A DNA stretch of 64,000 bases from Eledone cirrhosa. Lineage: Eukaryota. Shown in pieces: positions 16,761-62,056 of this stretch. Position numbers and translations under genes: made by a program. The notes below the pieces were generated by a model. The model did no database searches and was not told where the DNA came from. It saw only the letters and a list, made by a program, of their open reading frames with translations. Each line of letters opens with the position of its first letter. The stretch's first letter is position 1. The stretch covers positions 75,454,001 to 75,518,000 of the forward strand of contig OZ024745.1 in assembly GCA_964016885.1 (NCBI GenBank), written 5' to 3'.

Positions 16761-16930
16761 CATACTGGCAACTCTCTGTTATACTCACTGAGGTAAATAG
16801 TGAAAAATCCTTTTTTTTTTTCAGTACGAAAAAATATTTTCTTTGATAGTGAGGCTACCCATATGTTTATGTTTTTATATACACATCCCTATATATATTT
16901 CATCTATCTATCTATCTATCTATCTATCTA

Positions 16931-16979
<49 letters not shown>

Positions 16980-16981
16980 AT

Positions 16982-17048
<67 letters not shown>

Positions 17049-47225: not shown

Positions 47226-47487
47226 TTAAGCCAGAAGGCTCGTTAGGCCGGTGCTTATCCCGGTTTCGTGGCGTGAAGCGACTGAGAGTACAAGACTCCC
47301 CCCTGGACAGGACGCCAGTCCATCGCAGGGTTAAACCCCCAACTATTGCTGGGACACATATACTGGAGCAACGTGAAATGAAGTATTTTGTTTAAGAACA
47401 CAACACGCAGCCCAGTCCAGGAATCGAACCCACAACATTGTGATCATAAGTCCAATACCCTTACCACAAGGCCACACACCTCCACAA
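47226..47487 (-). mobile_element. tRNA-headed SINE with CORE-like and V-like segments; partial copies 10350-10532, 40250-40430, 56368-56490
   Basis: Minus strand TGGCCTTGTGG (A box), GGTTCGATTCC (B box), TGTGTTCTTAAACAAAATACTT, CCCTGCGATGGACTGGCGTCCTGTCCAGGG. Confidence 0.75.
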
Positions 47488-47764
47488 TGTAGATGAATCC
47501 GGGACAGAAATTTGGCTAAAGTACAGAAAGTAAAAATGTACTATTATAATTTTTCAGTAAAATCACACACACACATATATACACATGCGCACGCACGCGC
47601 GTACACACACACACACACACACACGCACACACACACATATATATATATACTCACACACACACACATATATACACACACATACAGACACACCCGCATGCAC
47701 TAACATACACATACACACACATAGACCAGACATACGCATACACACGCACACACACACAGACCAG

Positions 47765-47815
<51 letters not shown>

Positions 47816-48565
47816 GAGCTATATTTATTTGAAGTCCAGCATACAAAGACTTTTATTGTCATAGCAAATTCTAGATCAATAATAATAATAATAATAGTAT
47901 TAATAATAATAATAAAATCTATGAAAATGATTTGACTTCAAATAAAATATACAAAAAAAAATAACAAAACATTAATTATTCATTGCCTTTTTTTTTTGAA
48001 AGAATAAACTGGCCCTTAATAATAAGAACAACGGCAAAAAAACCGTCATCATCATCAACAACGGCAACAAAAGCAACATTAAAATCAACACCAACAATAA
48101 CAAATATAATTATTATTGCTTCTACTTTTGGCACAAGGCCAACAACACGAAGGGAAGAGGAAAGTCAATTAAATTGACCTCAGTACATTACTGGTACTTT
48201 ATTTTATCGACCCGGTCAGGATGAAAGGCAAAGTTAACCTCGGCGGGATTTGAATTCAGAACGTAAAGGGCCGTAACTATATGCAGCAAAGAATGTTTTC
48301 CGAAGCTCTATCGATAAGGCCAGCTATTTCAAGGAAAGGGTAAAGCCGATTAAATCGAGCCCAGTGCATTACTGGTACTTCAATACATCGTCCCTGTAAG
48401 GATGAATGACCAAGCTGACTTCAGCGAGATTTGAACTAGTCTCAATGTGTAATATCTCATCTATTTATCCCTCGGTCCCGTCTATCTATCCATCTATAGC
48501 CTCGCTCGCTCCCTCTCTCTTTCTCTCCCCCCCTCTTCCCCCTCTCTCTCTCCTTATATATCTAT

Positions 48566-48679
<114 letters not shown>

Positions 48680-48697
48680 TATATATAGATAGATATA

Positions 48698-48802
48698 TTT
48701 CTTTATTAGCCACAGGGGCACAAAAGAAGGGGACAAATACAAAGGGGGAAGTTTACATACAATAAAAACGTGTAAAATGTTATCACAAATGGAATTTAAA
48801 AA
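48698..48802 (-). mobile_element. 3'-end stub of a related Tx1 subfamily (second stub at 55122-55152)
   Basis: TTTCTTTATTAGCCACAGGGGCA..AAAAGAAGGGGACAAATACAAAGGGGG resembles the LINE 3'UTR; adjacent AGAT repeats. Confidence 0.75.
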
Positions 48803-48824
48803 GATAGATAGATAGATAGATAGA

Positions 48825-49215
48825 TTTCTTTATTTACCATAAAGGCATAAAAAGAAGGGACAAATACAAAGGGGGAGTTTACATAAAACCGAGTAAAAAG
48901 GGTATAAAATGAAAATAATCAAAAACAACCTCAAAAGGGAGGGGACGTGATGGGGGTTGCACACACCCCCGAAAAAGTGTGCAATCCTTTGCCCGGGGAG
49001 CACATGGAGAAGGTGCTCCCCTCTCCTTCACTTCTTTACCTACAGGATGGTATACAGAGAAGGCCCATTTACACGAGCCATTCTCGCCACTATCACCCAC
49101 CTTTCATAAAACTGCCTGTGGCCAAGCACCTCTCTCTCCATTCTTATCCTTCTTCCGAAGTGATATCGGAAGAAGTAGACCAGACTATGGCCAGAGAGGA
49201 AGTTGCCTGACCACA
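48825..49215 (-). mobile_element. 5'-truncated copy of the Tx1-like LINE (~390 bp of the 3' end)
   Basis: Near-identical to 49244-49630; bounded by (AGAT)n on both sides. Confidence 0.92.
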
Positions 49216-49458
49216 TAGATAGATAGATAGATAGATAGATAGATTTCTTTATTTACCATAAAGGCATAAAAAGAAGGGACAAATACAAAGGGGGAGTTTA
49301 CATATAATCGAGTAAAAAGGGTGTAACATGAAAATAATCGAAAATAACCTCAAAAGGGAGGGGACGTGATGGGGGTTGCACACACCCCCGAAAAAGTGTG
49401 CAATCCTTTGCCCAGGGAGCACATGGAGAAGGTGCTCCCCTCTCCTTTACTTCTTTAC

Positions 49459-52400
49459 CTACAGGATGGTATACAGAGAAGGCCCATTTACACGAGCCAT
49501 TCTCGCCACTATCACCCACCTTTCATAAAACTGCCTGTGGCCAAGCACCTCTCTCTCCATTCTTATCCTTCTTCCGAAGTGATATCGGAAGAAGTAGACC
49601 AGACTATGGCCAGAGAGGAAGTTGCCTGACCTCAGACCTTTCAATCGTGTCCACCAAACAACCTCTTTCAACATGGCTATTACGCACAGAAAAACCGCCT
49701 TTGCTTCCTTTGTGAAGAGGGGAGGCGGTTTGATTGTCATCACGGACTCGGCTGTCAATTTAATCGGCGCCACCCGCGACAGCAGTTGTTCGGCGTAGCC
49801 CCACAGATCAGCCACGCCCGGACATTGCACCAATGCGTGCGCCACGGTTTCTTCGTGACGCACGCATCTAGGGCAAATCTTTTTTGAGGGATCCCTGCCC
49901 GGGCGCCCGTGTCTGTAGAGCCTCTCTCGAACGGGTAGAGCCCCTCGGTAGCACTGCCAGGCCAGTGACTTCTGGAAGTTGTCCATTGGTCCTGGGCCGA
50001 AAGTCCTACCGAACAGGCTGGCCAGTTCGTCTTCTTCCATGTCCAGTGACTCTCCAAGGGTGTCATCGCCCCTGCTAGCCACCAGCCCTCTATAGAATGA
50101 TGAGGTGGATTCTCCACCGATGGCCCGGCCCGCTTGCCAGAGAGCCCTGAGCGCCTGAGCACACTCAGTGTGCCAGTCTCCCAGTTTTCCGGATCTTTGC
50201 TTGACCCAGGACTGTAGCTCGGTGAGTGAGACGAGTCTCGGAAAGGCTCGTTTCACGAACGGAGCCCACACCGGTTGACCAGTGAGGAATACCTGTAGGT
50301 GCCGTAGCCTTAATGCGTGCCTACGCATCATCAACCACGGCATCCCCAGCCCTCCTTTCGAAGGTTGTTGGCAGCAGATGGATCTTCTCACCATAGGAGG
50401 ACGCTTCTTCCAAAGAAATTGGAAGAGCATGCGTTCCATGGTGGTGAGTGTTTCCTTAGGGCAAGGCACGACAGTCAGGCGGTAGTAAGTGACGGACGCT
50501 ATGTAAATGTTCGCCACCTCCGCCCGGCCTTTTAGGGACAGCTTACACTTGGCCCATTTCTGGGTTAGTGCAAACACCTTGTTCGTAACCTCGTTCCAGT
50601 TCTTTTCCACCTGGAGGTCCGGTCCAAACCAGACCCCAAGCAACTTTACCGGGCCCTCCGTCCAGTGTCCGACGACACCATCGGGAGGCATCGGTCTGCC
50701 TCTCCACGTTCCGAGTTGCAGCCCGATGGATTTTTCCCGGTTCAGTTTCGCTCCTGACAACCTTTCGTACTCCTCCAGTAAGGTACCGATCGCCTCGATC
50801 TCCGAGTCGGTTGATACCATTACTGTTACGTCATCGGCGTAGGCCGACACCGCTTTGCTCAATCCTGGTTCCAGGGGGATACCCTGCAACAACTCCAACT
50901 TCCTCAGTAAAGGCTCGAGAGTCAATACGTACAGAAGGGAGGAGAGAGGGCACCCCTGTCGAATGGATCGTGTGATTTCGAACGGCTTCGAAAGGTAGCC
51001 GTTCACCTTGATCCTAGAACAGATGTGGTTGCTATGTAGGGCAGTGATCCAGCCTCTGAAAACAGGACCGAACCCAGCCGCCGCTAGCACCGCATCCAGG
51101 TAACCATGGTCGACCCTATCGAATGCCTTAGACTGATCCAAGTTGATCAGGGCCCCACCGAAGCCGGGTTTGTTGCCAACCCTCTCTATGATGTATCGCA
51201 TGAGGTGGAGGTTATCGTGAATGGACCTGGATGGGATAGCACATGTCTGCGCATCTCCCACCAGGCCACCCACGACAAGCGCCAACCTCTTTGCTAACAC
51301 CTTGGCCAAAATCTTTAACTCTGTGTTTAGCAGGGTTATGGGCCGAAAATTATTTATACTATCCCCCTTGTTCTCGTCCTTCCTCACCAGCGTGACTACG
51401 CCCTTGGCTACAGAACAAGGAATTCTCCCGTTCTGCTGCCAATTGCAGTAGACCGCTTCGAGGAGTTCGGAGAAGAAGACCGGCATTGCTAAATAAAGTT
51501 CGTAAGGTATACCATCGAGACCTGGAGATTTGCGTCTGCTGCATTGGCTCAGCGCATCTCCGATCTCATCAGCCGAGATTGGTCCCTCGCAGGACTCTGC
51601 CTCTTTGCTCGAGAGACGCGGCAGGCCGTCGAGGTATGGACCGAAATCCACGCCCCGGCCCGGACCCTCGCCTCCCCCGAACAATCGGGCAAAGTGCTTT
51701 TGAAAGGCCTCGCACATCTGCTTAGGCTCCCGGATCACTCGTCCATCTTCGTCTTGCAACGACCGGATGGTGGATCGATTTCCACTTTTAGCTTCTGTCA
51801 CGCGGGCCCATCCAACGGCTTTGGCCCCCTCATTACCTAGAGCACGTATTTTACTTCGAATGACGCAGCCTTCATGCTTTGCATCGAAAAACTGGTTCAA
51901 GGCCGTCCTCGATGCCAGCACTCTGGCCACATCTTCGCTCTTGATTGCCTCTTCTAATTTACCTGTTAATTCTTTCTCGTTTCTATTCCTATTGGCAGCT
52001 AACATCTTGCTATAACTTATTGATTCTGTTCTAATCTCTCTTTTGAGAGATGCCCACCATCGGTTGTTGACGATTGCACCCGTCAACCTCTCCTTAACTA
52101 ATCTGCTAATCCGGTTTCTGTAAGTCTCTTTTGCCGGTAAAGACAAATTAAGTTTCCAGTAACCGGGACCCTGTCTATGTGTTTTCTCGAGATTGACCAC
52201 GCAGGTCACTAATTTGTGATCCGTGTAGCCAACCGTGCGCATTTCTGGACAGCTTAATATGTCCCTATCCTTACTTCTAACTAAGAATATATCTAAGTAC
52301 GATCTAGATTGACCACTGTGGTTTCTCCAAGTCCAGGTAGGCACAGTTGGAAAATCTAGTCGATATCTATCGACCAAGTTAAAACGGTCGAGTAACCCCT

Positions 52401-52896
52401 TGAGGCTGTTACACCCCCCTCTATTAGGACATGCTCCTGCATAGTCCCAACGTGCATCCAGGATGTCATTCCAATCCCCCGCTAGAAGCAGGGAACGCGA
52501 CGTTCCCAGAAAAGTCTCCAAACGCTGGAAGAAGTCGGGCCGTTCAGCTCCGAAAGGGGAGTAGACGGCGACCAGTCTCAAGGCCGCACTTTCACTACTG
52601 CCAACGTCTAGCACCAACAAACGACCCTCCGGGTCCGAGTGCACAACCTGTACGGCAAGACCCAGGTGTTTTTGCAGCAGCACGACAACCCCACCCCCAC
52701 CTCCAGGTTGACAGAGAGATGCATGCACCTCAAAGTCATCGAAGGTGGGGGCCAGCTGCCGCATGACGCTGATTCGAGTCTCACAGATAACCATTACATT
52801 TATACTACATGACCTGAGGTCATTTAGAAGCTTTGCTTGCTTCCAAGTTGAGCCCAGGCCACGTGCATTCAAACATCCTACTCTTAACACATCCAT
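49459..52896 (-). CDS. ORF2p: APE endonuclease + reverse transcriptase + C-terminal zinc finger (1145 aa)
   Basis: GCLNARGL, ICET, GDWND, YLD, TDH (APE); GPGYWKLN; KSPGLDG, FRPITLLN, DQSKAFD, RQGCPLS, YADD (RT); CPRC..ETVAHALVQC. Confidence 0.96.
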   Translation of the reverse strand: MDVLRVGCLNARGLGSTWKQAKLLNDLRSCSINVMVICETRISVMRQLAPTFDDFEVHASLCQPGGGGGVVVLLQKHLGLAVQVVHSDPEGRLLVLDVGSSESAALRLVAVYSPFGAERPDFFQRLETFLGTSRSLLLAGDWNDILDARWDYAGACPNRGGCNSLKGLLDRFNLVDRYRLDFPTVPTWTWRNHSGQSRSYLDIFLVRSKDRDILSCPEMRTVGYTDHKLVTCVVNLEKTHRQGPGYWKLNLSLPAKETYRNRISRLVKERLTGAIVNNRWWASLKREIRTESISYSKMLAANRNRNEKELTGKLEEAIKSEDVARVLASRTALNQFFDAKHEGCVIRSKIRALGNEGAKAVGWARVTEAKSGNRSTIRSLQDEDGRVIREPKQMCEAFQKHFARLFGGGEGPGRGVDFGPYLDGLPRLSSKEAESCEGPISADEIGDALSQCSRRKSPGLDGIPYELYLAMPVFFSELLEAVYCNWQQNGRIPCSVAKGVVTLVRKDENKGDSINNFRPITLLNTELKILAKVLAKRLALVVGGLVGDAQTCAIPSRSIHDNLHLMRYIIERVGNKPGFGGALINLDQSKAFDRVDHGYLDAVLAAAGFGPVFRGWITALHSNHICSRIKVNGYLSKPFEITRSIRQGCPLSSLLYVLTLEPLLRKLELLQGIPLEPGLSKAVSAYADDVTVMVSTDSEIEAIGTLLEEYERLSGAKLNREKSIGLQLGTWRGRPMPPDGVVGHWTEGPVKLLGVWFGPDLQVEKNWNEVTNKVFALTQKWAKCKLSLKGRAEVANIYIASVTYYRLTVVPCPKETLTTMERMLFQFLWKKRPPMVRRSICCQQPSKGGLGMPWLMMRRHALRLRHLQVFLTGQPVWAPFVKRAFPRLVSLTELQSWVKQRSGKLGDWHTECAQALRALWQAGRAIGGESTSSFYRGLVASRGDDTLGESLDMEEDELASLFGRTFGPGPMDNFQKSLAWQCYRGALPVRERLYRHGRPGRDPSKKICPRCVRHEETVAHALVQCPGVADLWGYAEQLLSRVAPIKLTAESVMTIKPPPLFTKEAKAVFLCVIAMLKEVVWWTRLKGLRSGNFLSGHSLVYFFRYHFGRRIRMEREVLGHRQFYERWVIVARMARVNGPSLYTIL

Positions 52897-52929
52897 GTGG
52901 GCGGCAGAGCCAAAGGAGAGTGTAGAGAC

Positions 52930-54807
52930 CTACCTTTCCGCTTCCCGGGGTTCGGGTTGCACGACTTCCATGGGGTCGGGGGTGTTGGGTGAAGGGGTGT
53001 CTTGTGGTGGTGTGGGGTCGTCGGTGTGTGGTGGGGTTGGGGTGTTTGGAGTTGTGTTGGGGAGGGGAAGGGGAGGGGGAAAGCTTTTTAGTAGGACGCG
53101 GTTTATGGGTTTGACAGAGGGTGGTCCTACGTCCTCCTTAAAATCCTTTTTTAGTTTTTGGTAGAGGTTCATTGGGATTTTTATTAGTTTTAAATGTGGG
53201 TGGTTTTCTGAAGAAACAAAGTTTACACCTTCGGTTTGTACCGAAGGATTATTGTATATGAGTTCATTTAATTTATTATTGTTTCTGTTGATGTAAGTAT
53301 AGTGTAGTGTCTTTTTTTCCGATGGTGTGAGTGTTTCGAAGAGGGGAGGGGCAGGTTTGGTTTTGTTTGTTGCTGGAGGGGTGTTTTCTGTTTTGTTAGA
53401 TTGTGTTGCGATTTGGGTGGGGGTTGTTTGTCCTTGTGTGTTTTGCACATGTTTTCTTTTTTTCCTTTTAATCTGTCTGAAGGACTCCGTTTCTTCCTCC
53501 GAATTCGTTGGGTTATCTTCAGTGTTGGAGGGAAGAGGTATGTTTGCTGGTAATGTTTCCGTGTTGGTTTTCTTTGTGGGGGAGATGGATGTCACTATGT
53601 TAGACTGTGTTGTGTGTTGTGTCTGCGGTGGTTGTGTTGTTTTATTGAGTGAGAGGTTGGGTGGGCCTGTATTTTGTTTTGGGGTAATGTGTTGTGACTG
53701 TTTGTGTTGTGGTGGTGTTGTGGTGTTACTGAGGGACGGGTTGGGTGGGACTGAGTTTTGTTGTTTGTTTATCTGTTGTGGTGGTGGTGGTGGAGCTGGT
53801 GTTGGTAGCAGGGTTTTCTTTTTGTTGAGTTGGGGACAAGCGGCCTTCAGGTGCCCTCTGCCTGCACAGATATGGCAGGACGGCCTTCTCCCCTCCACGC
53901 TAATGTTTATATACCCGTGGTCCTCTAATAGGATTCTGTCGGGTATTTGGGCGATGCGTTCAGGCTTCATTTGTACTACCAGCTCTATACCTGTTCCACT
54001 GAACGCATTGCCTGTGGTTTTCCCAATGGAAATCACGTTGTCATTCACTGGATCGATGAAGCCAGCTATGAGCCAGCAGTAGTCCACATCTGGCATCATT
54101 GCATCCAGCCATATGCGTTGAGTTTTTTTTCCCATATAAGATGGATAAAAGGTGAAATTTTTCGAACGAATCGGTGACAAAGCACATTTTTTTGCCGCCG
54201 ATTCGTTCTTCATGATAATTGCTAGGCTTCCATACAGTCTGTCTTTTCTTATGAAAGTTGTTTCATTCAGTACTTCTGCGAGTACTGTTTTGATATCTGC
54301 TTGAGAAGGCTGTTCAGGTTTTTTTGTACTGTTGTTGATGGTCCGAAACTTGACCGTTCGGCTTTCAATGTCTTTCGTGAATTCTTGAGGCATTTTTACC
54401 AATAAAATACCATTCTCACCTTCACTTATGTATTGTTTTGCGTCCGTGATCCTTCGTACCACATCTGAAATGTTTTCCGCTATATAAGTCAAAGATTTCT
54501 TTGTTTTCTGTGCAAATGAAGTCTTGTCGTCTGCTTTGTTTTCTGATATTATGTTATTTTCAACTGTTATTTTTTTGTTTGTTGTGTCTTTGTTTGTGTT
54601 ATTAGTATTGTCATGCAATTTTTCAAATTTTTTTTCTTCGTTGTTTTCGACATTTAATTTTTCCTCCGCAGATTCGTCCGTTTTTATTTTCATTTTTCCT
54701 TCCTTCTCTATGACGTTAGTTGGGAAGGAAGGGAGGACTAAAGCGTGCGAGCTTACAACTCTTACCGCTGTCCCCCCACCACTATTTTCGTTCGCTGCGT
54801 TTAACAT
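52930..54807 (-). CDS. ORF1p: nucleic-acid-binding protein with CCHC zinc knuckle (625 aa)
   Basis: CHICAGRGHLKAAC knuckle followed by a Pro/Thr/Gln-rich region; directly upstream of ORF2. Confidence 0.88.
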   Translation of the reverse strand: MLNAANENSGGGTAVRVVSSHALVLPSFPTNVIEKEGKMKIKTDESAEEKLNVENNEEKKFEKLHDNTNNTNKDTTNKKITVENNIISENKADDKTSFAQKTKKSLTYIAENISDVVRRITDAKQYISEGENGILLVKMPQEFTKDIESRTVKFRTINNSTKKPEQPSQADIKTVLAEVLNETTFIRKDRLYGSLAIIMKNESAAKKCALSPIRSKNFTFYPSYMGKKTQRIWLDAMMPDVDYCWLIAGFIDPVNDNVISIGKTTGNAFSGTGIELVVQMKPERIAQIPDRILLEDHGYINISVEGRRPSCHICAGRGHLKAACPQLNKKKTLLPTPAPPPPPQQINKQQNSVPPNPSLSNTTTPPQHKQSQHITPKQNTGPPNLSLNKTTQPPQTQHTTQSNIVTSISPTKKTNTETLPANIPLPSNTEDNPTNSEEETESFRQIKRKKRKHVQNTQGQTTPTQIATQSNKTENTPPATNKTKPAPPLFETLTPSEKKTLHYTYINRNNNKLNELIYNNPSVQTEGVNFVSSENHPHLKLIKIPMNLYQKLKKDFKEDVGPPSVKPINRVLLKSFPPPLPLPNTTPNTPTPPHTDDPTPPQDTPSPNTPDPMEVVQPEPREAER

Positions 54808-55041
54808 TTCTGTTAGACGATTGAAATTTTTTACACAAAATTTTTTTTAAAACAGGTTTTTCGCCTCTAGGAGGGGTAAAGATGAGCTGACCCACCGCCT
54901 GACAGTTCAGACGGAGGGTCAAGCTACACAATTGTATCAAAATTAAGTTTGAACTCACAAAATTTCCTCAATAAATTTGAACAAAACTTCTGTGCGAAGT
55001 GAATGACATCCACACTGTAGAACAGACGACAGCTAGATTAT

Positions 55042-55119
<78 letters not shown>

Positions 55120-55185
55120 TGTTTCTTTATTAGCCACAGGGGCAAAAAAGAAACAGTTCTAGTCCTGTAGAAGCCATTTATATAT

Positions 55186-55226
<41 letters not shown>

Positions 55227-55378
55227 TGTAGTGAAGTGACACATGAGTTGATATTCCTCCCGAAGTATAGTAATATCTGGTTCAACACATTATTTCACGA
55301 CAAGAATCTTGCAGAACAAATACAAAAACGATGTATATAGTTCAAGGACACACATACACACACACACACACACACCTC

Positions 55379-55417
<39 letters not shown>

Positions 55418-55937
55418 ATAAGAAACGGAGAATCAGTGGTGCGATGAATAACATTTATTAGACCTATTACAATCGTTTCTCTGGCGACCAGCTCGAGGCA
55501 CGATTGATGCAATGATCAAACCTGACTCTGAAATCGCAAGATCTTCGGATATGTCTCGATTCTACGACGCAGATTTTTTTGTTTGGGTGGGGGGGGGGGG
55601 ACACTCTGCTTCGTAGAATTGTTGTTACAACGAAACTAGTTCAATATTCCTTGTCTGGCTTTCTGGAGAATAGAGGAAAGGTGTTTCCTCAAAAACCAGT
55701 ATGACTCTAAAAACCGGTTTGTCTGTGTGTTTACATACAGAATAGCTGGCCACTCACAGTAAAGTGACCAGTGAAAAAACTTGGTACATCTACATATGTA
55801 TACGTGTGTGTATTCATATACATACTAGTATTTCAGTATACATATATGGATGTACATCTTTAACTTAATTGTTTAAGCGTCAGTCATACAAAAGTGAGTT
55901 ACAAACAAAACGAAATTTAATTTCGTTTCGTTATTTG

Positions 55938-55999
<62 letters not shown>

Positions 56000-57702
56000 G
56001 CCAGTTGGGGAATAATGTTAATTAGATGGTACCTGCACTGAATGATTTTACGTGAATTGGTTATTCAGTACTAACAGTAGGAATGAATATATCTTTTTGC
56101 TATTGGCGTAATATGAAGAATGTGAGATATTAAGAAAGTGAGATCGGGGTTTTAGAGATGTACATTCTCAATTCCAATCTCTATTTCGGCTGACGAGCAA
56201 ATCGATCCACCGATTAGATTCGATGATAGATCTATACCAGTCGTGATTATCTTGTATATTTTTATATATATCCTTCTTCTCTAATCGTGTGATTTGGAGG
56301 AGATTTGTCTGCTATTTCTAGCGATTTACATTTGACTATTTTTATGACTGTGATTTAAGGAAGATATGGAAGGCGTGTGGCTGAGTGGTTAGAGAATTGG
56401 ATTCGCAATCGTGAGGTTGTGAGTTCGATTACTGGACCAGGCGATGCGTTATGTCCTTGAGCAAGACACTTTATTTCACATTGCTCCTTCTACCTGGAGT
56501 TGCGACCGATAGATAGTACTAGCAATTGGAAAGACCAACGGAAACATTGTTTCCTCGGTCCGATATGCCGAAAGTCAATCGTTCCTTTAAAAAAATGGTT
56601 GGTATTCCTTGCGGATCAAGTGAAAATCTATAGGTTCCCTTGCTGATTCTTAGAGTTCATTGTTAAATACGTAGGTAGTATAGACTTGCCTGTTGCTACT
56701 TCTATAATATTTGATATAAATGATTTATTCTTTCCTATACCTCCTTAGCAACTTGTTATAAAATATATTTTATAATCTATTATACTAAACGTAATGAGAA
56801 GAAACATCGTGTTGATTTTTGAAATAATAAATCAAAGTCTATTTTATTTGAGATTTTTCTGACGATATATCTTTGAGAAACCGTAAGAATTCCCTTAAAT
56901 TTTTTTATACTTTTTCAGTAACTTTTTTCTTCGTCTCACTTTCCTCTAGATGTGACGTGACTCATCATAGAAGACTGGAAAAAGATTTAAAGTTTCATTG
57001 CCCAGAAGCTAATCGGAAGGATAGCGCTTAAAGAAGCCATGAAACGGGGAACAGAAATAGAAAATCTGGGGCTTATTTAACGTTTGTATTAAAAACAGTT
57101 TCGCTCTGAATTAGACTTGAAGGTAATTCAGTAAACAATATCCGTGTATGACAAAATAGACAACTGCTAATCGCTGCTCAATAATTTCTATTGCTAACAA
57201 TACCCAGCAGTCATAGATAGACCTGCTTCGAGTTTCTTATCACAACAAAGACAGAAATCGTATTAATATCCATTGCACATTTCTCTATTGTCAACAACTT
57301 GGACACTTTTCATGTTCAAGTGATGAATTTGTCATCTTATGGATTCACTGAAACAAATAACCGAAATTTAACCCGAAAAAAAAAATCATTTTTTTCCAAG
57401 AAAGATACATTTAGAAAGAGAGATGATATTGGCAAAGTTAACATTTTTGAGCAAGATTGAATGGGTTCAAGCTCAGTTAACGACGCAAGTAGTTAACTTC
57501 AGTTCGAAACTAGGAATCGAAAGCTGTTTCAGACAATATCAAATGTTTGGATTTTTTGAAACAAGAAGTGTAACTAAATGAAATGCGATAAAATTTACAT
57601 ATTTCTGGCAGACTGTTGGTGACACTTCTGACGTTGTAATACAATTAATATACTGACGCGACCGTCTGTGCCTAAAGTGTCATGGCTATCTGTGTCATAA
57701 CA

Positions 57703-57733
<31 letters not shown>

Positions 57734-57738
57734 GTGTG

Positions 57739-57829
<91 letters not shown>

Positions 57830-57939
57830 GGAGAGAGGAGGGAGAGAGACGCAACAAAAATGAAGGGGTTCGCTTCATGAAATTTGATGGGATCCGATAA
57901 CGCATGTTTTCGTTGATAGCGAGTCCCTCATATGTTATT

Positions 57940-58445
57940 TATAAACCGGTAATGAGATAAAAATAAACTAGTGGCAATAGCACTAACATAGCGTTAAGCC
58001 TAACAGTAGTGCATTACTGGTACTTTATTTTATCGACATCCTTACGGGGTCGATAAAATAAAGTACCAGTAATGCACTGGGTAATTGCTGGTCTTGTGCC
58101 TAAAGTAGAAACAGTTATTTATAAACATATAGTGTATGTTTTAATATGCACTACTGTTAGGCTTAACGCTATGTTAGTGCTATTGCCACTAGTTTATTTT
58201 TATCTCATTACCGGTTCAGTGAATGCCACTGATGAGAAATTAATGAATAGTGAAACAGCTGTCTGACATTCTCAGCGGCTATTGAAATATCTGAGTCTTG
58301 TTCACAGAATGAAAAAAAAAACGAAAAACAATTTTTTCATTACGAAAGATATTTTTTCTTTGATAGCGAGATTATCACATGTTTATGACATACTGACATA
58401 TAGTATATGCTTTCCATGTGCACCCCTATTATGCTTAAAACTATT
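57940..58445 (+). mobile_element. Fold-back insertion with hammerhead at 58223-58269 and a SINE fragment in the spacer
   Basis: Arms 57944-58009 and 58152-58216; ATGCCA-CTGATGA..GAAAC-AGCT-GTC-TGACAT. Confidence 0.7.
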
Positions 58446-58495
58446 TTAGTGTTGCTGCCAATTATGCACACACACACACACACACACACACATAA

Positions 58496-58593
<98 letters not shown>

Positions 58594-58745
58594 CGAAGAA
58601 AATGTGGTAAGGAACCAGGTGGACCATAACGCACCAAAGTACTCAATACTTAGGGTAGTAGAGTGGGTAATAGGAACCAGTAAGACCCCGACAGAATTAG
58701 CCGTCGAAACGGCTTGAGCTCAGCCGTCGGGGTCTTACTGGTTCC

Positions 58746-58771
<26 letters not shown>

Positions 58772-58777
<6 letters not shown>

Positions 58778-58847
58778 GTCCCAAAAAAGGTATCCACACT
58801 TTTATTAGAATGCTGTTGGAGTTTGTATACATTTTTGGGACACCCTA
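58772..58847. mobile_element. Tc1/mariner-like MITE (relatives 899-975, 61471-61555)
   Basis: TIRs TAGGGTGTCCCAAAAA / TTTTTGGGACACCCTA within (TA)n. Confidence 0.75.
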
Positions 58848-59116
58848 TATATATATATATATATCATGCAATGTTACATTGCTTACCAATGGGTGGTGAT
58901 TCCGATTAGTAAACGATGATACATAAATTAAAGCACTCGACGTTATGCAGATCATCCATCGTCGATGTGGTATCCAGTGGTTGGTGCTGGGACTGAGTGG
59001 AATATTCATTAAAAACAACAAAAGGGGCCGGACTGGGAGCTTTATAATATTAATTCCGCGAAAACACTATACATATTTCAATGGCCCAGCTTTAGGACTC
59101 TCTTATATAAACTATT

Positions 59117-59712
59117 TCTTCTTCTTCTTCTTCTTCTTCTTCTTCTTCTTCTTCTTCTTCTTCTTCTTCTTCTTCTTCTTCTTCTTCTTCTTCTTCTTCT
59201 TCTTCTTCTTCTTCTTCTTCTTCTTCAGTGGGTCCTGTCAGAAGCAACTGTCCCCAACTGTTCCAGCTGGATCCTCAAGCAAGACCAGCCGAGCTCATGG
59301 ACGTTATCAAACCATCTTTCTCGTAGTCTACCACAGATTCTTTCCTGAGACATTCTAACCACTTGTCCGTAGTATCGGCACTGTCATCTCTCAACTCGGA
59401 GACATAGTGGCTTAACCAGGAGTGACTCTCTCATCTCCGAACTACGCACTCTATCGAGTAACGTTACTCCAAAGACCCTTCAGGGGAAACCCATTACGGC
59501 AGCTTATGTTCGCGATCGCAGTGTTTCGGCCATTACCCAACGAATATCGAATTGAAGACAGTGAGTTTGGCTTTTACACTTATCACCCTCCTTCTAATGA
59601 CCAAATACTGAAGCTGACGCATTACTACATATGCTCCTGCAATGCTTGTACTTAATTCAGCCAGAGGCTTTCCATTACTTGTGAACAAGGCTCCGAGATA
59701 CTTGAACTTCTA
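59117..59712 (-). mobile_element. RTE 3' fragment with (GAA)n tail
   Basis: Reverse complement of the 32.7-33.3 kb RTE sequence, followed by (GAA)n. Confidence 0.82.
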
Positions 59713-60578
59713 CACCTCAAATACCTCAAGGCCGTGTTAGCATAACACTTATAGGAAGAAAGAAAAGCGTCTTATATATGCATGTACCTACCTACCTACT
59801 TGGTGGCTGCCAACTCGTTTTCGAGTACGGCCACTACTTTATATCCATGTAGGAGAACCCCTACTGATGCGCTGAACGAGTGTGACTTTTTAGTCTAGCC
59901 AGCGACTTGAAAACTCTGGTAAAAACACTACATTTGTGACAATTATTGACACATAGTGCTGGGCCCGTGGTACCATGTGACGACAAGTGCAGAGAGATCT
60001 CCAGATATAAAGCAATGCCTGTGCCGTGAAGCTTTTATAGTGAGCAAAGGCACTGCACAAAGCCAGTCCCACTCTCTTAACCAAGATGATATTTACCAAA
60101 AAGAAGAACAAGTCAACATCATTGGATACCATCAGGGTTGCAGGTGTTATATCAGAGTTTTCCTTCTCCTAGAATTCTGCCTTGACAAAGGCTAAGGGTC
60201 ATCTCTCCCGGTGATTTTGGATTGCCATTCACCCTTAAGAGTTCCTTTGACAGGTTTTGTTTTTAGTCCTGCAGGATGTCCAAAGTCACCCTCCTCACCA
60301 AGAAACCTTGGTGGGGTTGCCAGTTTAGTCGCCAACGACCCGACCATGAGACAGGTTGTACTGGGATACATGTTACCAGTAGCACCAACTGGTGACCTGA
60401 CATACATACATTCATATATATACATACATATTTATATATGTATGTGTGTGTGTGTGTGTGATGTAGGTTTCCTAGTGATGTTCGGGGTTAACCACAGTTA
60501 AATAAGGTACTCAATACGCAGGTAGAGTATAGGGGCAACTTTATTATATATAGTTCTAGTCTTGTAGAAGTCATTTAC

Positions 60579-60609
<31 letters not shown>

Positions 60610-61048
60610 CATACATACATGCATACATGCATACAGGCATACAGGCATACTTACATGCATACATACATGCATACATACATGCATACATACATACATATGT
60701 ATAAATCTGTATCTATATTTATATTTTTATATAGGTATATGTATATTTGTATGCATGTATTTATGTATGTACGTATTTATGTATGTATATATGCATATAT
60801 GTGTGTATATGTGTATGATGTATGTATGTATGTATGTATGTATGTATACATGTATTTAATGGTTTGGCAGTATCAGTAGAGCGTCAGACACCATGTTTTG
60901 CAGCATAGTTATGGCCCTTTGCGTTCTGAGTTCAAATCCGCCGAGGTTAACTTTGCCTTTCATCCTTACGAGGTAGTTAAAATAAAGTACCAGTGGTGCA
61001 CTGGGGTAATGGCTGGCCTTGTGTCAAAAGTAGAAACTCAAATAAAGA

Positions 61049-61115
<67 letters not shown>

Positions 61116-61402
61116 ATATATACTTACATACATGTATACATACATACATACATCATACACATATAAACACATATATGCATATATATATATATATATATGT
61201 TTCTTAATTTGAGTTTCTACTGTTGACACAAGACCAGCGATTACCCCAGTGCACCACTGGTACTTTGTTTTATCGACCTCGTAAGGATGAAAGGCAAAGT
61301 TAACCTCGGCGGATTTGAACTCAGAACGCAAAGGGCCATGGCTTTTTGCTACAATGTTTTCTATACCTTTCATTTACATATATATATATATATATATATA
61401 CA

Positions 61403-61441
<39 letters not shown>

Positions 61442-61561
61442 TTATATATATATTATATATATATATATAAAGGGTGTCCTCAAACCATAATGTTGTACAG
61501 GCAATATCTATTAGAATGCTGTTGAAGTGTATATATATATTTTAGGCATACCCTGTATATA

Positions 61562-61604
<43 letters not shown>

Positions 61605-61792
61605 ACAAAGGAATTATGGTAAGGAACCAGATGGACCATAACGCACCAGAGTACTCAATACTTAGGGTAGTAGAGTGGTAAATAGGAAAAAGTATGACCT
61701 CGACGGCAGAGCTCAAGCCGTTCCAACGGCTATTTCTGTCCAGAAATACCCGTTGAAACGGGTTGAGCTCTGCCGTCGGGGTCATACGTTTT

Positions 61793-61839
<47 letters not shown>

Positions 61840-61962
61840 ACTTGGGGAGGGTCATATTGTTGTAATAATATTGCCAGAATTAATAACAAAACACACTTAC
61901 TGTTCCGACACATATCAAAAACCTCGCAAAACAAATTCATCGCCGTCTTTATATATATATAC

Positions 61963-62056
<94 letters not shown>

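Follow-up and report, generated by a model that had tools for sequence, protein, structure and literature searches.

Four same-strand copies of an L1-group retrotransposon joined by ATCT repeats in Eledone cirrhosa, with a possible role of the element's tail as its target

Several long interspersed elements (LINEs) are known to insert into microsatellites. Families of the Tx1 type use TC (Kibi), TTC (Koshi), and TTCC or TTTC (crocodilian families) repeats (PMC4494074, PMC3812793), and ACAY, AC, and TAA repeats (PMC3812793) and TG repeats (PMC4640811) are also LINE targets. How endonuclease specificity and pairing of the RNA with the primer share in target choice has been called not well understood (PMC3812793). 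Here I describe a stack of four LINE copies joined by (ATCT)n in a 64,000-nucleotide stretch of the Eledone cirrhosa genome (GCA_964016885.1, contig OZ024745.1, positions 75,454,001 to 75,518,000), hereafter called the window. The explanation that I consider probable is that the copies inserted successively, each leaving (ATCT)n at its 3′ end, on which later copies primed. Like Kibi, Koshi, and the crocodilian Tx1 families, the element is a LINE with an apurinic/apyrimidinic endonuclease (APE), a related ORF2 architecture, and a microsatellite on both sides. Unlike them, it has (ATCT)n/(GATA)n as the repeat and a cephalopod as the host, and the repeat was apparently made mostly by the element.

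Three other kinds of element are instructive. UnaL2 (TGTAA), the I factor (TAA), and RTE also have a simple-repeat 3′ end that can lengthen and aids priming; they belong to other clades, their tails grow by slippage, and stacking in their own tails is not described in the available text of the sources (PMC3747384, PMC6007223). Drosophila R1 arrays and SINEU-3 tandems are likewise same-orientation stacks of full-length and truncated copies formed by serial insertion at one site; their spacers are described as fixed, host-derived target duplications, unlike the ATCT runs of 6, 7, and 19 units found here. Human LINE-1 (L1) resembles the element as its best solved-structure match by sequence and fold, in its two open reading frames (ORFs), in a nine-residue endonuclease loop, in the predicted nick at a TpA step, and in a tail that would equal the target. 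The L1 poly(A) tail pairs with a T-rich primer, and L1 re-inserts into older poly(A) tails. Unlike L1, the present element has ATCT instead of poly(A) at all four ends, and its ORF1 has a CCHC knuckle and no match to Transposase_22.

Architecture of the stack

On the minus strand, the order is (TC)n(TA)n, a 26-nucleotide (nt) repeat piece, two extra bases, a stub called B2, ACAT(ATCT)19, and the full-length copy A, followed by (ATCT)7, a truncated copy A′, (ATCT)6, a piece called B1, ATAT(ATCT)2, and host (TA)n. The features are as follows.

55181..55225, no strand assigned: host (TA)n(GA)n run, outer flank at the 5′ side of the stack
55155..55180, no strand assigned: 26-nt fragment of another dispersed repeat, adjoining B2
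55123..55152, minus: B2, the outermost piece, a 30-nt remnant of the 3′ end of the second subfamily, lacking ATCT at its 5′ side
55043..55122, minus: variant unit ACAT and (ATCT)19, after B2 and directly upstream of the full-length copy
49245..55042, minus: full-length non-LTR (long terminal repeat) retrotransposon of subfamily A, with a length of about 5.8 kb and a 5′ boundary placed to within a few bases
49215..49244, minus: (ATCT)7 run between the full-length copy and A′
48826..49212, minus: A′, 5′-truncated sister of 387 nt, comprising 173 nt of the ORF2 end and the 3′ untranslated region (UTR)
48802..48825, minus: (ATCT)6 run between A′ and B1
48699..48801, minus: B1, 103-nt 3′ end of the second subfamily
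48687..48698, minus: variant unit ATAT and (ATCT)2 after B1, then host (TA)n
48555..48686, no strand assigned: host (TA)n run, outer flank at the 3′ side of the stack

All four pieces lie on one strand. Between them, the AGAT runs are perfect, with 6 (48802-48825), 7 (49217-49244), and 19 units (55043-55118). A′ is 97.8% identical to the full-length copy, B1 is 79-84% identical to A, and B2 matches B1 at 32 of 34 nt. Searches of the window with blastn, and with tblastn using the two ORFs and the full set of 127 stored homologues as queries, found no further copy or older relative. A first-pass annotation of this DNA had described one full-length element with three same-strand, 5′-truncated pieces from two subfamilies and AGAT separators, and this was confirmed. 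It had also described the stack as four deep in (AGAT)n; only three of the four 5′ junctions abut (ATCT)n. The outer ends are two ATCT units followed by long (TA)n on one side and the 26-nt repeat on the other. It is (TA)n, and no long GATA array, that surrounds the stack; thus, a long GATA array did not pre-exist at the locus.

All four pieces end in AATAAAGAA and join the repeat in one common phase; ATCT units adjoin every 3′ junction and three of the four 5′ junctions. The 3′ UTR (49245..49458, minus strand, 214 nt) has two local hairpins and ends in AATAAAGAA without poly(A), and no run of at least six A was found within 100 nt after any of the four AATAAA signals. The signal lies 3 nt from the element end, every downstream piece has its own, and the ATCT runs after the two A copies end 27 and 31 nt past it. 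On the primer strand, both A copies read AGAT/TTCTTTATT (the slash marks the joint), which would be the product expected from a nick at the single TpA step of the repeat. Each of the two A copies is bordered on either side by pure ATCT, which it meets in exact phase. The B pieces share a variant first unit, A(T/C)AT, and have 12 nt of 3′ flank in common. The 5′ joints are in differing phases and ragged by 1-2 nt, and no host-derived non-repeat sequence lies between pieces at the locus. The pattern of one-phase 3′ joints with ragged 5′ joints fits that usual for target-primed insertion (PMC2718515). As a separate observation, two extra bases (GT on the element strand) are identical at the 5′ joints of A′ and B2 (49213-49214 and 55153-55154), where longer relatives read otherwise.

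The two UTR hairpins, each of 8 bp, lie just past the ORF2 stop codon (49375-49440), and one difference between A and A′ turns a G-U into a G-C pair. They may possibly be a recognition signal for the ORF2 protein. The folding of the whole 3′ UTR was not unusual (z -1.33; 21 of 200 shuffles were equally stable), and an Rfam search of 46000-62000 gave 59 sub-threshold matches, all outside the element on simple-repeat or SINE-like DNA.

Families are regarded as microsatellite-specific when the target repeat is present in >20% of flanks (PMC4494074). Here, three of four 5′ flanks and four of four 3′ flanks are in ATCT, all from one locus. The outermost copy, B2, shows no pre-existing host array of ATCT at its 5′ side, and the inner three would have entered one only if an earlier tail is counted as such. 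The spacers also differ from the fixed, host-derived target-site duplications (TSDs) of R1-type tandems, being unequal ATCT runs without unique host sequence; a short duplication within the repeat is possible.

Origin of the copies and of the repeat

It was assessed how often such a stack would be expected by chance. A random point has a GATA-type run directly upstream on the correct strand at a frequency of 2.4e-4, or 1.6e-3 when a family-made tail of 150 nt is granted. With the same grant, the in-window probability that at least three of four junctions abut a run by chance is 1.5e-8. Because the locus was chosen for its appearance, the genome-wide expectation was also computed, assuming a 2.5-Gb genome and 100-nt tails, with local hot-spot effects outside the model. 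The expected number of four-copy stacks is 8e-8 at 1e4 copies, 8e-4 at 1e5, and about 0.5-8 only at 1e6; in Octopus vulgaris, all 80 L1-Tx1 families together span 56 Mb (PMC13282606). Under the stated assumptions, random insertion is excluded. Since a self-made tail with random insertion cannot yield a four-copy stack, either site preference or concatenation is needed.

Are the copies independent of each other? A and A′ differ by eight substitutions, all within the 214-nt UTR and none in the 173 coding nt (Fisher p 0.0097); six of the eight are transitions, and there are no internal indels. A ninth difference, the gap at the boundary, is left out of this count. Since the substitutions are confined to the UTR, they point to two source copies under coding constraint and not to a decayed local duplicate or read errors. 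By its sequence, A′ is an independent insertion, and its origin as a slippage or assembly duplicate was rejected on account of these UTR-only differences and the lack of indels. Chance or artefact in general, meaning a random insertion next to tails that the element made itself, a tandem duplication at the locus, or an assembly error, might be suspected in a window very rich in simple repeats (172 rows from the tandem repeat program TRF), where TRF calls the A/A′ pair a 419-bp tandem at 98%. This is scarcely credible, given the low chance estimates, the nature of the A/A′ differences, and B pieces that are merely 79-84% like A.

Successive insertion would proceed as follows. Transcription would read through AATAAA into the repeat, giving an RNA with the end ...AAUAAAGAA(AUCU)n, to which poly(A) would probably be added. 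RNA is cleaved 10-30 nt past AAUAAA, which would fall within the ATCT run. The APE endonuclease would then cut the (AGAT)n strand, the nick probably falling at the one TpA step of the repeat, which would yield the AGAT/TTCTTTATT joint. The freed AGAT 3′ end could anneal to (AUCU)n and serve as the primer for reverse transcription, so that poly(A) would be skipped and out-of-register pairing would add units. The founding B copy may have used a near-cognate TA-rich site, and its tail would then have been favoured as a landing site by B1 and by the A copies, which are younger; B would thus have inserted first and the intact A copies later. The preference may be set by the endonuclease, by RNA-primer pairing, or by both.

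Several observations agree with successive insertion. ATCT is found at the internal joints although GATA-type runs of at least three units cover only 58 bases of the window outside the stack. The four pieces lie on one strand, which a non-palindromic target requires. The lack of poly(A) at the joints fits priming within the repeat better than priming at the RNA end, and the shared variant first unit of B1 and B2 is expected of an inherited, transcribed tail. The order B-A-A-B places the intact young subfamily inside. As for the repeat itself, the outer flanks are (TA)n, B2 has no upstream ATCT, and B1 is followed by two units; therefore, the internal units, about 32 in number, date from the insertions or later. 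The founding insertion in a (TA)n context without 5′ ATCT likewise suggests that the repeat at the locus was made mostly by the element. Thus, "self-generated tail" and "target" are probably one thing and not alternatives. The first-pass annotation had offered the self-generated tail as an alternative to targeting: the repeat does appear to be mostly element-made, and random insertion beside such tails fails to give a four-copy stack. Its suggestion that copies may re-insert into the tails of earlier ones fits best.

Other observations weigh against this explanation. B2 has the 26-nt repeat piece and not ATCT at its 5′ side, and the 3′ side of B1 has only two ATCT units. A free (ATCT)7 at 16902-16931 has no insertion, and no element end precedes it. 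A TSD is unreadable within the repeat. The phase of the nick is uncertain to within one base, so the element may end in ...AAGAAA. The order B-A-A-B arises by chance in one of six cases, and B may not be the older subfamily; the variant unit shared by B1 and B2 could equally be a duplicated target. The endonuclease hairpin loop has nine residues, the length of the promiscuous L1 enzyme, and not 11 as in Tx1L and TRAS1. Finally, four copies at one locus are not independent samples of target choice.

An alternative is serial insertion at a site that is not defined by the length of the ATCT run. Here, a short TA/ATCT boundary or the 26-nt repeat would be preferred, the target duplication would be reused, and ATCT would be a tail or a duplicated target extended by slippage. 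It is favoured by the outer flanks, which consist of (TA)n and a fragment of another repeat, and by the 12 nt of 3′ flank common to B1 and B2. There are precedents as well: R1 tandems are spaced by the target duplication (PMC2718515), a TSD is sandwiched in tandem SINEU-3 and Tx1 families often target other transposons (PMC4494074), and double insertion is the main source of Drosophila transposable element dimers (PMC5932611). It is nevertheless unlikely, since no host-derived non-repeat sequence separates the pieces, both A copies meet pure ATCT in exact phase on either side, and 32 internal units would still have to be made from about two. The idea that B2 is a TSD of the 3′ end of B1 was rejected because a short piece upstream is on the wrong side.

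The common orientation, the tails at internal joints, and the missing ATCT at the outer 5′ joint could also be accounted for by a single event with template jumps, in which the reverse transcriptase (RT) copied B1 and then A′, the full-length RNA, and B2 from their 3′ ends; ATCT would be the RNA tails, with no targeting. The two extra bases at two joints could then be untemplated, and template jumping is known for R2 and template switching for L1 (PMC4494074, PMC2718515). Such an event needs four source RNAs from two subfamilies and three jumps, however, and poly(A) would be expected where the enzyme jumped to the 3′ end of an RNA; none of the four joints has it, which could be reconciled only with a non-polyadenylated RNA. 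I regard it as improbable. Alternatively, the stack may be a composite. It would have been moved or built either through 3′ transduction, with A′ and B1 carried along by read-through from the full-length copy, or through recombination of copies elsewhere at their ATCT runs. With the signal 3 nt from the element end and a separate signal in each downstream piece, such transcripts could be copied as a unit. This is very unlikely, because it merely shifts the question to a source locus that needs the same tail-to-head joints and leaves the upstream B2 unexplained.

Coding capacity and relationships of the element

The full-length copy consists of the following parts, in addition to its 3′ UTR.

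54808..55042, minus: 5′ UTR, about 235 nt
52930..54807, minus: ORF1, 625 amino acids (aa) from the first ATG, with one CX2CX4HX4C knuckle at residue 311
52897..52929, minus: 33-nt spacer; the ORF1 stop and the ORF2 ATG share a frame
49459..52896, minus: ORF2, 1145 aa, with APE endonuclease (about residues 1-235), RT (Pfam RVT_1 at 512-755, YADD at 686), and a C-terminal CCHC zinc finger (1008-1025)

There are no internal stops in ORF1 or ORF2. Pfam matched ORF2 with Exo_endo_phos (E 2e-6), RVT_1 (6e-27), and zf-RVT (8e-6; at 26.9 bits, just under the cut-off of 27.5). The endonuclease motifs CLN, ICET, VYSP, GDWN, LDIF, and TDH are kept, as are the RT motifs up to YADD. The intact ORFs and recent activity proposed in the first-pass annotation are supported by the sequence, and so are the L1-group identity and anatomy, by the ORF2 domains and motifs and by structural matches.

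Membership in the L1 group of non-LTR retrotransposons is shown by sequence features. ORF2 has an N-terminal APE endonuclease, RT, and a C-terminal CCHC finger; there is a separate upstream ORF1; there are no LTRs, and the 5′-truncated copies share a 3′ end. Among solved structures, in which few clades are represented, ORF2 matches human L1 ORF2p best by sequence (E 2e-50), and its RT is closer to L1 than to R2, of the restriction-like endonuclease (RLE) type (E 2e-20). An endonuclease model from a seven-row alignment (mean predicted local distance difference test score, pLDDT, 79.9) has the L1 endonuclease as its first structural match (TM score about 0.7).

The endonuclease hairpin loop helps to set specificity, with 11 residues in Tx1L and TRAS1 and 9 in L1, whose nick is 5′-TTTT/AA (PMC1950540). 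The loop has 9 residues in the present element and 10-13 in six homologues, and it is poorly predicted (pLDDT <50 at residues 189-197). A loop of this length would neither show nor exclude selective nicking of the repeat.

The element is likely of the Tx1 type. ORF1 variants with an RNA recognition motif (RRM) and CCHC are associated with Tx1 (PMC5203782). Of the features of a type I ORF1, the CCHC knuckle is present (Pfam E 0.1), and there is no match to Transposase_22; ORF1 as a whole protein had no Pfam match at E 0.1. An RRM-like part is hinted at by language-model features, the Atlas matches (0.89-0.92) being zf-CCHC clusters, one with RRM_1 in 10% of its members and one ZCCHC3-like. No sequence homologue of ORF1 was found at E 0.001 among 1371 candidates, and the single-sequence fold prediction was not usable (pLDDT 32). 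The C-terminal half of ORF1 is of low complexity and rich in Pro, Thr, Gln, and Asn. ORF1 (52930-54807) is strongly A/C-rich, with 40% A and 16% G, and ORF2 (49459-52896) is balanced and GC-rich; this contrast could stem from separate origins of the two ORFs. No sequence similar to the 5′ UTR occurs elsewhere in the window, and no Rfam match to it is listed.

An RT tree was made from the query and the 87 of the 127 stored proteins that cover at least 80% of the RT segment (88 rows); it contains no curated Tx1 or L1 reference. The query pairs with a stored protein, P0001 (support 99), within a 33-row clade (support 100) that includes one cuttlefish protein, and the one automatically named TX1 protein, which is fungal, lies far from it. 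The nearest named ORF2 relatives are from Argonauta hians (61%, over ORF2 residues 112-620) and Acanthosepion pharaonis (47% and 42%), and 15 of the 127 stored homologues reach 58-77% identity. Two ORF2 relatives, P0066 and P0056, are labelled as proteins of bacterial or archaeal genome bins and are likely eukaryotic DNA in those bins. O. vulgaris has 80 L1-Tx1 families, of which 13 are recently active with 421 insertions, and no target-site analysis was found in the available text of that study (PMC13282606). By description, these pipeline-classified families are probably the class to which the present element belongs, and recent activity is common to both. In an earlier octopus study, the full-length elements were only RTE and Dong (PMC9115989).

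Surroundings of the stack and significance

The window is AT-rich (GC 0.22-0.43 per 2-kb block outside the element), dense in simple repeats, and contains many copies of SINE-like repeats. A second copy of the 26-nt flanking repeat, at 60552-60577, is identical at 24 of 26 positions and has (AT)n where the stack would sit. It continues with AACTATATAT at the corresponding site, with 8 of 10 matches to ATCTATCTAT. Judging from this one paralogue, it is plausible that a AACTATATAT-like sequence was the near-cognate site at which the stack was founded.

Other features of the window were noted. Two compound microsatellites, at 16902-17045 and 48453-48686, both have the order (ATCT)n-(CT)n-(TA)n on the plus strand; the latter is decayed and forms the outer flank of the stack, in the orientation opposite to the ATCT runs of the stack. 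A SINE-like pair at 60860-61339 lies tail-to-tail across one (TA)n/(CATA)n run, with ends similar to AATAAAGAAAC, the end of the LINE. A candidate for a fifth copy, the AATAAAGAAAC(AT)n at 61041, was rejected, as it terminates a SINE-like repeat found many times in the window. SINE-like halves are inverted around 58029-58057 (57944-58216), and an N gap of 200 bases (41954-42153) falls within a SINE-like copy. A Penelope-type element on the plus strand (6329-9559) encodes RT and a GIY-YIG endonuclease (Pfam); it is not intact, since its coding region is split over three overlapping or adjacent frames.

Microsatellite-associated Tx1/L1 LINEs are already known, and what is possibly new is the GATA target and the self-seeding. 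A full-text literature search found no LINE that targets GATA/ATCT; most subscription papers and Repbase reports lie outside its coverage, and a prior description is possible. The available text of PMC6007223, PMC4758252, PMC8967140, PMC10294476, PMC9004415, and PMC3747384 describes no GATA target.

A wider view can be offered only tentatively. A cephalopod L1/Tx1 lineage may have replaced poly(A) by (AUCU)n as both tail and target, so that each insertion would build the next landing pad. The family would then seed and lengthen GATA microsatellites and stack harmlessly in its own tails, and sister lineages with other endonuclease loops (9-13 residues among the seven aligned) might aim at other repeats.

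Even if successive insertion into its own tails is the true explanation, the known classes of mobile elements would be unchanged. A GATA-type target would join the short list of microsatellite-specific LINEs, and the element would be an intact natural one for separating endonuclease specificity from RNA-primer pairing; its compact APE enzyme would have a non-genic repeat as its target. The family would also be a source of GATA arrays in repeat-rich cephalopod genomes.

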